Positions 5,740 through 5,995 of a DNA stretch of 15,734 nucleotides are shown here, in pieces. Origin of the DNA: Escherichia coli. Lineage in GTDB: Bacteria; Pseudomonadota; Gammaproteobacteria; Enterobacterales; Enterobacteriaceae. Positions within the stretch are counted from its first letter, which is position 1; each line of letters starts with the position of its first letter. The notes below the pieces were generated by a model, which saw only the letters and a program-made list of their open reading frames with translations, searched no databases and had not been told where the DNA came from. The stretch is from NCBI RefSeq assembly GCF_003334355.1, contig NZ_QOWP01000050.1. One strand, 5' to 3'. The position numbers and the translations under genes are program-made.

Positions 5740-5995
5740 TACTATGCTCCCGTAAATTCCGATTGGATATCGGCTATGGATTTTCCTGGCCCGCCTTTTG
5801 CGGGCAATCATAATCCTGGTCGTTACGGGCGAGTTTTTCCATCTTTTGGATGTTTTTTCAGCGTTTTCTGTTGGCTCGATTCATCAGAAAAAATGTTAGC
5901 GCGGTCAAGTTTTCACCGCAAAGGTATTTAAAAGGTATTATTAAGTGGTATTGTCATCGCGTACCTTACATTACCTGTCATGAAGGAATTAAAAG

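Follow-up and report, generated by a model that had tools for sequence, protein, structure and literature searches.

Which bases upstream of yegT are recognized by the repressor YegW? The region in question lies in a 15,734-nt stretch of Escherichia coli DNA (in the following called the window), which corresponds to the gat–fbaB–yegTUV–yegW–yegX–thiMD region according to its open reading frames, NCBIfam matches and the RefSeq annotation of an identical stretch. The products of yegTUV match a nucleoside permease, an ADP-ribosylglycohydrolase-like protein and a PfkB kinase (NCBIfam), and yegW is oriented convergently to this operon. YegW, renamed GgaR by Saito et al. (2024; PMC10819704), has been described as a single-target repressor tying ADP-glucose to glycogen accumulation. 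Its single ChIP-chip peak is located in the fbaB/yegT spacer, with a second signal within yegT; the yegTUV operon is silent in the wild type, its 3.3 kb transcript being detected only in a yegW mutant (derepression of about 30-fold); YegW has no effect on fbaB; and ADP-glucose frees the protein from the spacer probe (PMC10819704).

The regulator–target pair and the binding at fragment level are already known, the published binding evidence consisting of fragments of about 240-500 bp and of ChIP-chip. The terms "footprint", "consensus" and "palindrome" do not occur in PMC10819704, the text and supplements of the GntR motif compilation of Suvorova (2015) contain no YegW motif, and the other literature searched for yegW together with a site yielded neither a published motif nor a site. 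What is added here is a base-level model of the operator, its deep conservation, the sequence of an intragenic second site and a likely overlap with the promoter.

An initial annotation of the window, made from its letters alone, had proposed direct GGTATT repeats upstream of yegT as the operator of YegW. This proposal is supported by the segment bracketed in gel shifts, by conservation, by the prediction of a second site and by the fit to base-reading residues of the HutC family. Based on these lines of evidence, it appears quite likely that positions 5919-5954 are the core of the primary YegW operator (O1), consisting of three GGTA(T) units in the same orientation, acting by promoter occlusion and accompanied by a weaker intragenic copy (O2). 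The coordinates of all features are listed in Table 1.

TABLE 1. Features of the yegTUV region and gel-shift probes in window coordinates.
Feature	Position	Strand	Description	Basis
fbaB	starts at 5739	-		ORF list, NCBIfam, RefSeq
TGTTA-N6-TCAA(g)	5894..5909	.	CRP-like element, centred 5901.5	1.32 bits per column
O1	5919..5954	+	Proposed primary operator of YegW/GgaR, CAAAGGTATTTAAAAGGTATTATTAAGTGGTATTGT	Conservation, gel-shift bracket, top matrix match in window
Repeat 1	5919..5929	+	cAAAGGTATTt; GGTATT at 5923	GGTAT (near-)invariant in all orthologues
Repeat 2	5930..5942	+	AAAAGGTATTATT; includes TATTAT of the consensus-scan promoter	Exactly 11 bp past repeat 1
Repeat 3	5946..5954	+	TGGTATTGT; 13 bp past repeat 2	Conserved as TGGTAnnnT
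GTACC / TTACC	5961-5965 / 5971-5975	- (GGTAC, GGTAA)	Possible inverted half-sites	Conservation
Shine-Dalgarno	5983-5987	+	AAGGA	Sequence, conservation
yegT start codon	5996-5998	+	ATG	Sequence, ORF list, conservation
yegT-yegU-yegV	5996..9236	+	Operon, regulated target	ORFs, NCBIfam, RefSeq annotation
O2	6799..6838	+	Operator-like site in yegT codons 269-281, CTTTGGTATCAAAAAGGTATTATTGCTTGGTCTGGTCACC	Matrix, repeat finder, probe 5
yegW (ggaR)	9210..9956	-	GntR/HutC-type repressor gene	Pfam GntR + UTRA, NCBIfam HutC/PhnF-like
Probe 1	5616-5890		YegW binding: none	PMC10819704
Probe 2	5806-6046		YegW binding: yes	PMC10819704
Probe 3	5975-6315		YegW binding: none	PMC10819704
Probe 4	ends at 6714		YegW binding: none	PMC10819704
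Probe 5	6567-6864		YegW binding: only at higher protein amount	PMC10819704
Probe 6	starts at 6812		YegW binding: none	PMC10819704

Binding Data and Layout of the Repeats

The primers of the published gel-shift assays, which had been carried out with purified YegW (PMC10819704), were mapped onto the window coordinates. Since probe 2 was bound and probes 1 and 3 were not, the primary site needs bases in 5891-5974; by the same reasoning, the pattern of probes 4 to 6 places essential bases of the secondary site in 6715-6811. The repeats are located centrally within the first bracket. GGTATT is present on the + strand at 5923-5928, 5934-5939 and 5947-5952, with spacings of 11 and 13 bp. All three (A)GGTATT copies of the initial annotation were recovered in their contexts AAGGTATTTA, AAAGGTATTA and GTGGTATTGTCAT; they are, however, found 73 to 44 bp upstream of the ATG and not, as had been stated, entirely within the last 60 bp before yegT. 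In terms of a binding model, O1 would consist of two full 11-bp tandem units AAAGGTATT and a third unit, TGGTA, 13 bp further on, with the GG step of each unit presumably being read by one winged-helix domain of YegW.

Conservation Across Enterobacterales

Within E. coli, the 151 bases around the repeats were found at an identity of at least 95 % in 5422 of 5426 complete genomes. For a wider comparison, one scan of species-representative genomes with YegT provided 80 loci from Escherichia, Citrobacter, Salmonella, Klebsiella/Raoultella, Enterobacter, Kluyvera, Buttiauxella, Cedecea, Pectobacterium, Leminorella, Limnobaculum and others, and more distant yegW orthologues (62-72 % identity) were retrieved by protein search. 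In the alignment, the block 5919-5954 (cAAAGGTATTTaAAAGGTATTATt.a.TGGTA...T) is present in every one of the 80 upstream regions, near-invariant and with zero indels, between variable flanks. Its mean information amounts to 1.80 bits per column for 5919-5942 and 1.98 bits per column for 5946-5950, compared to 0.6-0.9 bits per column for the adjoining segments (80 distinct sequences in each case). Full GGTATT is conserved in repeats 1 and 2, whereas repeat 3 is conserved only as TGGTA with a T four bases on. A lack of the repeats in orthologous promoters, by which the initial annotation considered its proposal refutable, was thus not observed in the 80 species or, beyond these, in more distant genera.

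The same holds true for the arrangement of the units. The spacing of 11 bp between units 1 and 2 is free of indels in 84 orthologous sites, and that of 13 bp between units 2 and 3 is constant except for Pantoea (12). Providencia, Yersinia intermedia and a further relative with 65 % identity (L084) contain the same three units at the same spacing, while the diverged form of Pantoea has kept AAAGGTATTATAAAGGTATC, followed by TGGTGC one base closer. A yegW gene convergent to yegTUV was found in every locus long enough to hold it, including six without fbaB as neighbor, and the block accompanies yegT and yegW even where the neighbor is not fbaB. As both yegW and the motif occur in every sampled species, this co-occurrence comes without a negative control.

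A Second Site Within yegT

A matrix of 40 columns, built exclusively from non-Escherichia upstream blocks, was used to scan the whole window on both strands. O1 (5919-5958) obtained the best score of the window with 63.5 bits, and the sole other site in the 15.7 kb was O2 (6799-6838) with 14.9 bits; the next-best match reached -31.9 bits, and the best of 300 random windows scored -9.0 bits with the same matrix. Independently, a repeat finder reported O1 and O2 as a pair of 38 nt with 79 % identity, 880 bp apart, and both sites align unit for unit (GGTATTTAAAAGGTATTATTAAGTGGTATTGTCATCGC for O1 and GGTATCAAAAAGGTATTATTGCTTGGTCTGGTCACCGC for O2). O2 is located in probe 5, the sole intragenic probe to which YegW bound, and falls beneath the second signal of the ChIP-chip analysis. 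Probe 6, which is unbound, begins at AAGGTATTATT and therefore does not contain unit 1 of O2. Since a matrix from other genera only predicts the published weak site and explains the difference between probes 5 and 6, these results represent the strongest evidence that the three-unit array is the target of YegW. At fragment level, O2 is a real binding site in E. coli.

O2 encodes the conserved peptide FGIKKVLLLGL(V/I)TA, and its sequence is largely dictated by the part FGIKKVLLLG. When the whole peptide was recoded with the codon usage of the gene itself, the E. coli site scored -34.1 ± 9.9 bits in comparison to the 14.9 bits observed (0 of 2000 recodings reached this value). A similar excess over recoding was found in Salmonella, Citrobacter, Kluyvera, Yokenella, Pluralibacter-like genomes, Raoultella and Buttiauxella, and degraded versions of the site occur in the Enterobacter/Lelliottia/Leclercia group, Atlantibacter, Leminorella and Limnobaculum. 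The O2 position is the second-best matrix match in 74 of 80 loci, which is partly owing to the conserved peptide. A universal synonymous constraint at O2 is unsupported, as the codon entropy of its 13-codon window ranks 159 of 413 windows in 44 equal-length genes and is not an outlier. These observations suggest that O2 is probably kept in many lineages, although not universally, and that its function is putative. Speculatively, it may aid repression via looping or via a higher local repressor concentration.

An arrangement of this kind resembles lac O2, which is also a weaker operator copy located in the first structural gene and recognized by the same repressor, a low-abundance protein with a single target. 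The two differ in that the YegW site is degraded in the Enterobacter clade, that its contribution to repression, by looping or otherwise, is speculative, and that it is placed 880 bp from O1, a distance which amounts to 401 bp in the case of lac O2.

Promoter and Mode of Repression

Unit 3 is conserved as TGGTAnnnT, which equals the extended -10 pattern (TGnTAnnnT). Providencia, Yersinia and L084 likewise have TGGTAnnnT, and Pantoea has TGcTAGATT, shifted by 3 bp. A promoter candidate TTTAAA-16-TGgTATTGT can be derived from this TG.TA...T conservation. Its -10 element would be TATTGT at 5949-5954 with the TG at 5946-5947, preceded by a 16-bp spacer and a putative weak -35 element TTTAAA at 5927-5932, so that transcription might start near 5961-5963 and give rise to a leader of about 34 nt. 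The consensus scan gave another candidate, TTCACC(5912)-18-TATTAT(5936-5941), with its hexamer in unit 2; the final T of this TATTAT is unconserved in about seven species. With the conservation-derived promoter, units 1 and 2 would cover the -35/spacer region and unit 3 would coincide with the probable extended -10, TGgTATTGT at 5946-5954. As both candidate promoters are covered by the three units, YegW most likely represses yegTUV by occluding the promoter from RNA polymerase.

The yegT starts reported by Kim (2012) are only weak ones, 444 and 558 nt upstream and inside fbaB. The start of fbaB itself (Kim, 2012) corresponds to position 5805 on the - strand, more than 110 bp away from the repeats, which fits the published absence of a YegW effect on this gene. 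The transcription start of yegW (Kim, 2012) corresponds to position 9980, and neither a two-unit nor a three-unit motif match was obtained in the yegW promoter region 9957-10010; autoregulation via the motif is thus not predicted. A search of 5600-6200 for RNA families yielded no Rfam match at E ≤ 1, so that there is no support for an RNA element in either the spacer or the leader.

The downstream element CCTGTCATGA listed in the initial annotation is present at 5974-5983. Of the TGTCAT repeat noted there as well, the first copy (5952-5957) is unconserved, whereas the second copy, within CTGTCATGAAGG at 5975-5986, is conserved. CTGTCATGAAGG as a whole is strongly conserved, the only established reason for this being the Shine-Dalgarno sequence. 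Compared to all other genera, Escherichia has a 5-bp insertion, TTACA (5966-5970), between GTACC and TTACC. The Escherichia leader furthermore has one extra base in comparison to other genera, and as a consequence a conserved upstream ATG (5980), which in most other genera lies 15 nt before yegT and in frame with it, does not share the yegT frame in E. coli.

Comparison With Other GntR-Family Regulators

YegW contains the Pfam domains GntR (7e-16), with the winged helix at residues 29-87, and UTRA (3.5e-36), a combination which places it in the HutC subfamily. A regulator of this build encoded beside its target corresponds to what is found for HutC operators. The canonical HutC operator is the palindrome NyGTMTAKACNy with GT...AC half-sites about 4 nt apart, and direct repeats are described as exceptions: TGGTATT for NagQ and TGTATTAWTT for FarR within HutC, and TGGTATAW for NanR in the FadR subfamily (PMC4494728). 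No HutC palindrome is present in 5891-5974, where the three GGTA units all have the same orientation; the same-orientation GGTAT-type units at 5923, 5934 and 5947 with their short spacing agree instead with a direct-repeat GntR operator. The expectation of the initial annotation that a HutC-type regulator would act on GT/AC-containing repeats overlapping the promoter therefore holds in part: a GG-containing GGTAT half-site fits the family, but the canonical palindrome is absent.

The closest solved relative of YegW is NagR/YvoA of B. subtilis, for which structures including a DNA complex (4WWC) exist. NagR recognizes the half-site GTGGT by means of Arg38 and Arg48, which read two consecutive guanines, and of Gly69 in the wing, which reads the minor groove (PMC4333415). 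R51, R61 and G82 of YegW align with these three residues and do not vary among 13 orthologues with identities down to 62 %. The invariant GG of each unit corresponds to what a domain with such reading residues would need. The dre sites of NagR/DasR (GTGGTCTAGACCAC) likewise share the half-site core (G)TGGT with the E. coli unit 3 (GTGGTAT), in addition to the base-reading residues common to NagR and YegW. In contrast to the YegW units, which are direct and 11 or 13 bp apart, the dre half-sites are inverted and six nucleotides apart, with one dimer per palindrome.

Among the direct-repeat cases, NagQ, as far as its description in PMC4494728 goes, is like YegW in belonging to the HutC subfamily and in having (predicted) direct repeats of the (T/A)GGTATT type, and it differs by belonging to another orthologous group and other taxa and by serving the N-acetylglucosamine pathway instead of yegTUV. 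FarR/MngR is another HutC-subfamily repressor of E. coli that uses direct repeats, and its TGTATTAWTT resembles AGGTATTATT; its core is GT instead of GG, however, with two repeats and with mngAB as target. NanR, a metabolite-released repressor of the GntR family, provides the closest parallel in layout, having three same-orientation GGTAT-type hexamers, (GGTATA)3, at an E. coli catabolic/transport operon promoter. It belongs to the FadR subfamily (FCD domain) and not to HutC/UTRA like YegW, and it has three target operons as compared to one for YegW. In addition, its repeats are about 8-9 bp apart, versus 11 and 13 bp at the YegW site. Together with these two E. coli examples, the operator of YegW would be the third case in this species of a GntR-family repressor with direct repeats instead of a palindrome, and as such useful for understanding how GntR-family dimers bind such sites. 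It nevertheless represents an ordinary kind of bacterial operator and leaves the general view of such repressors unchanged.

NanR occupies its three GGTATA repeats as three dimers, which assemble cooperatively by means of an N-terminal extension (PMC8012715). In front of its winged helix, YegW also has a conserved extension, about 22 residues long, and by analogy to NanR this might be an assembly device, which may be regarded as a lead. Taking the analogy further, it is conceivable, if rather doubtful, that YegW does not bind as one dimer to a palindrome, but that several dimers assemble cooperatively via this 22-residue extension on the three GGTA units and are bridged by a DNA loop to the copy inside yegT, 880 bp away. 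The rare codons of this copy (GTA TTA TTG CTT) would then be maintained by selection in many enteric lineages. In such a case, about ten dimers per cell could hold the operon roughly 30-fold repressed. For experimental work, O1 with its three direct units and the intragenic copy allow defined mutations by which the regulon, the effector response and the promoter can be probed.

Alternative Explanations for the Conserved Block

A functionless chance cluster of three hexamers in an AT-rich spacer would be a simple explanation of the repeats, given that GGTATT is over-represented across the window (20 matches versus 7.1 expected) and that two further three-copy hexamer clusters occur in it, both of them in coding sequence. 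When random sequences of 256 bp were generated with the dinucleotide make-up of the spacer, however, clusters of this kind (any non-trivial hexamer present three times on one strand within 35 bp) were obtained in 32 of 5000 cases, i.e., at a rate of 0.6 %. By itself, the GGTATT cluster is accordingly unusual but not decisive; decisive are its conservation and its match to the published binding data. Because the block is near-invariant across genera while its flanks are randomised, this explanation is effectively refuted, and its probability may be regarded as practically nil. A different matter is whether the block has been conserved as mere promoter architecture (-35, spacer, -10 and phased A-tracts bending the DNA or acting UP-like), or as the site of another regulator, e.g., one responding to nucleosides or catabolites, with YegW binding elsewhere in 5891-5974, for example at TGTTA-N6-TCAA. 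The latter element is indeed conserved inside the gel-shift bracket, the conservation of unit 3 follows the extended -10 pattern, promoter elements alone would also be conserved, and A3-A4 tracts repeat with an 11-bp period. Promoters, on the other hand, do not need three invariant GGTA units, and the three-unit layout recurs without promoter context, and without TGTTA-N6-TCAA, in the sole intragenic fragment bound by YegW. Considering also that the GG step suits the conserved arginines of YegW and that its single ChIP-chip peak is at the fbaB/yegT spacer, an explanation by promoter or foreign regulator alone is very improbable.

The operator might also be inverted, with unit 3 (GGTAT, 5947-5951) pairing with GTACC/TTACC (5961-5975), or comprise a five-unit →→→←← array, units 1 and 2 being insufficient alone or mainly promoter. 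Inverted half-sites are the usual targets of HutC regulators, GTACC is well conserved (1.66 bits per column), and unit 3 and GTACC of Citrobacter form GGTAC-N9-GTACC. Moreover, Providencia, Yersinia, L084 and Pantoea all have a TACC element 3′ of unit 3, even though its spacing is altered, and O2, from which the TACC arms are absent, binds more weakly. This weaker binding could equally be explained by mismatches in the O2 units, however, and O2 is bound in spite of the missing arm. The spacing between unit 3 and TACC varies in the distant genera, whereas that between units 1 and 2 never does, and it is these two units that show the highest conservation within the block. The conservation of GTACC might furthermore be caused by its place at the expected 5′ end of the mRNA. 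Overall, an inverted operator appears unlikely, and three direct units are the preferred reading; GTACC and TTACC may be extra inverted half-sites or mark the mRNA 5′ end.

Further Elements and Observations at the Locus

The statement of the initial annotation that no other obvious operator is visible between fbaB and yegT did not hold, as the conserved TGTTA-N6-TCAA and the inverted GTACC/TTACC elements are also present. Both are contained in the bracket 5891-5974, and either could contribute to the binding of YegW. TGTTA-N6-TCAA is located about 25 bp upstream of the repeats, near -60 from the putative transcription start, and its conservation extends from Escherichia as far as Providencia and Yersinia; in Buttiauxella and Cedecea its left half is TTGCAA. 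Genomic SELEX of CRP identified a site in the fbaB/yegT spacer (PMC3105977), and the element might be this site. The assignment is tentative, since the E. coli element has 3 mismatches to TGTGA-N6-TCACA and is thus not at 2 or fewer mismatches to the consensus.

A σ54 site upstream of yegT has been reported from ChIP-seq (Bonocora, 2015; site OS20) with the sequence CTGGCCCGCCTTTTGCG, which corresponds to 5786-5802. This sequence also forms a GC hairpin and is directly adjacent to the fbaB start on the - strand. The σ54 motif was found in 1 of the 80 loci, which belongs to another E. coli genome, and is missing even from E. albertii and Escherichia sp. E1V33; it was therefore rejected as a conserved mechanism and is probably incidental.

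Among the orthologous loci, that of Citrobacter koseri NCTC10786 (L068, 5001-6290) contains a disrupted yegT, in which the stretch from about residue 143 to 190 is out of frame and includes a stop, the frame being regained behind it. The operator block upstream of this yegT is intact, and the gene is either a pseudogene or the result of an assembly error. A record titled Chryseobacterium sp. 18061 (L042) holds an Enterobacteriaceae fbaB-yegTUV-yegW locus, and a YegW homologue (P0103) is filed under the plant Cichorium endivia; contamination or mislabelling is likely for both records. The two other three-copy hexamer clusters of the window are coding and unrelated to the yegT repeats: GCCAAT occurs three times at 1291-1323 in an ORF of 451 aa (100-1455), and CATCAC occurs three times at 13491-13523 in the ORF 13092-13916, where it encodes the histidine-rich stretch HHHHDHEHHHDHGHHHHH.
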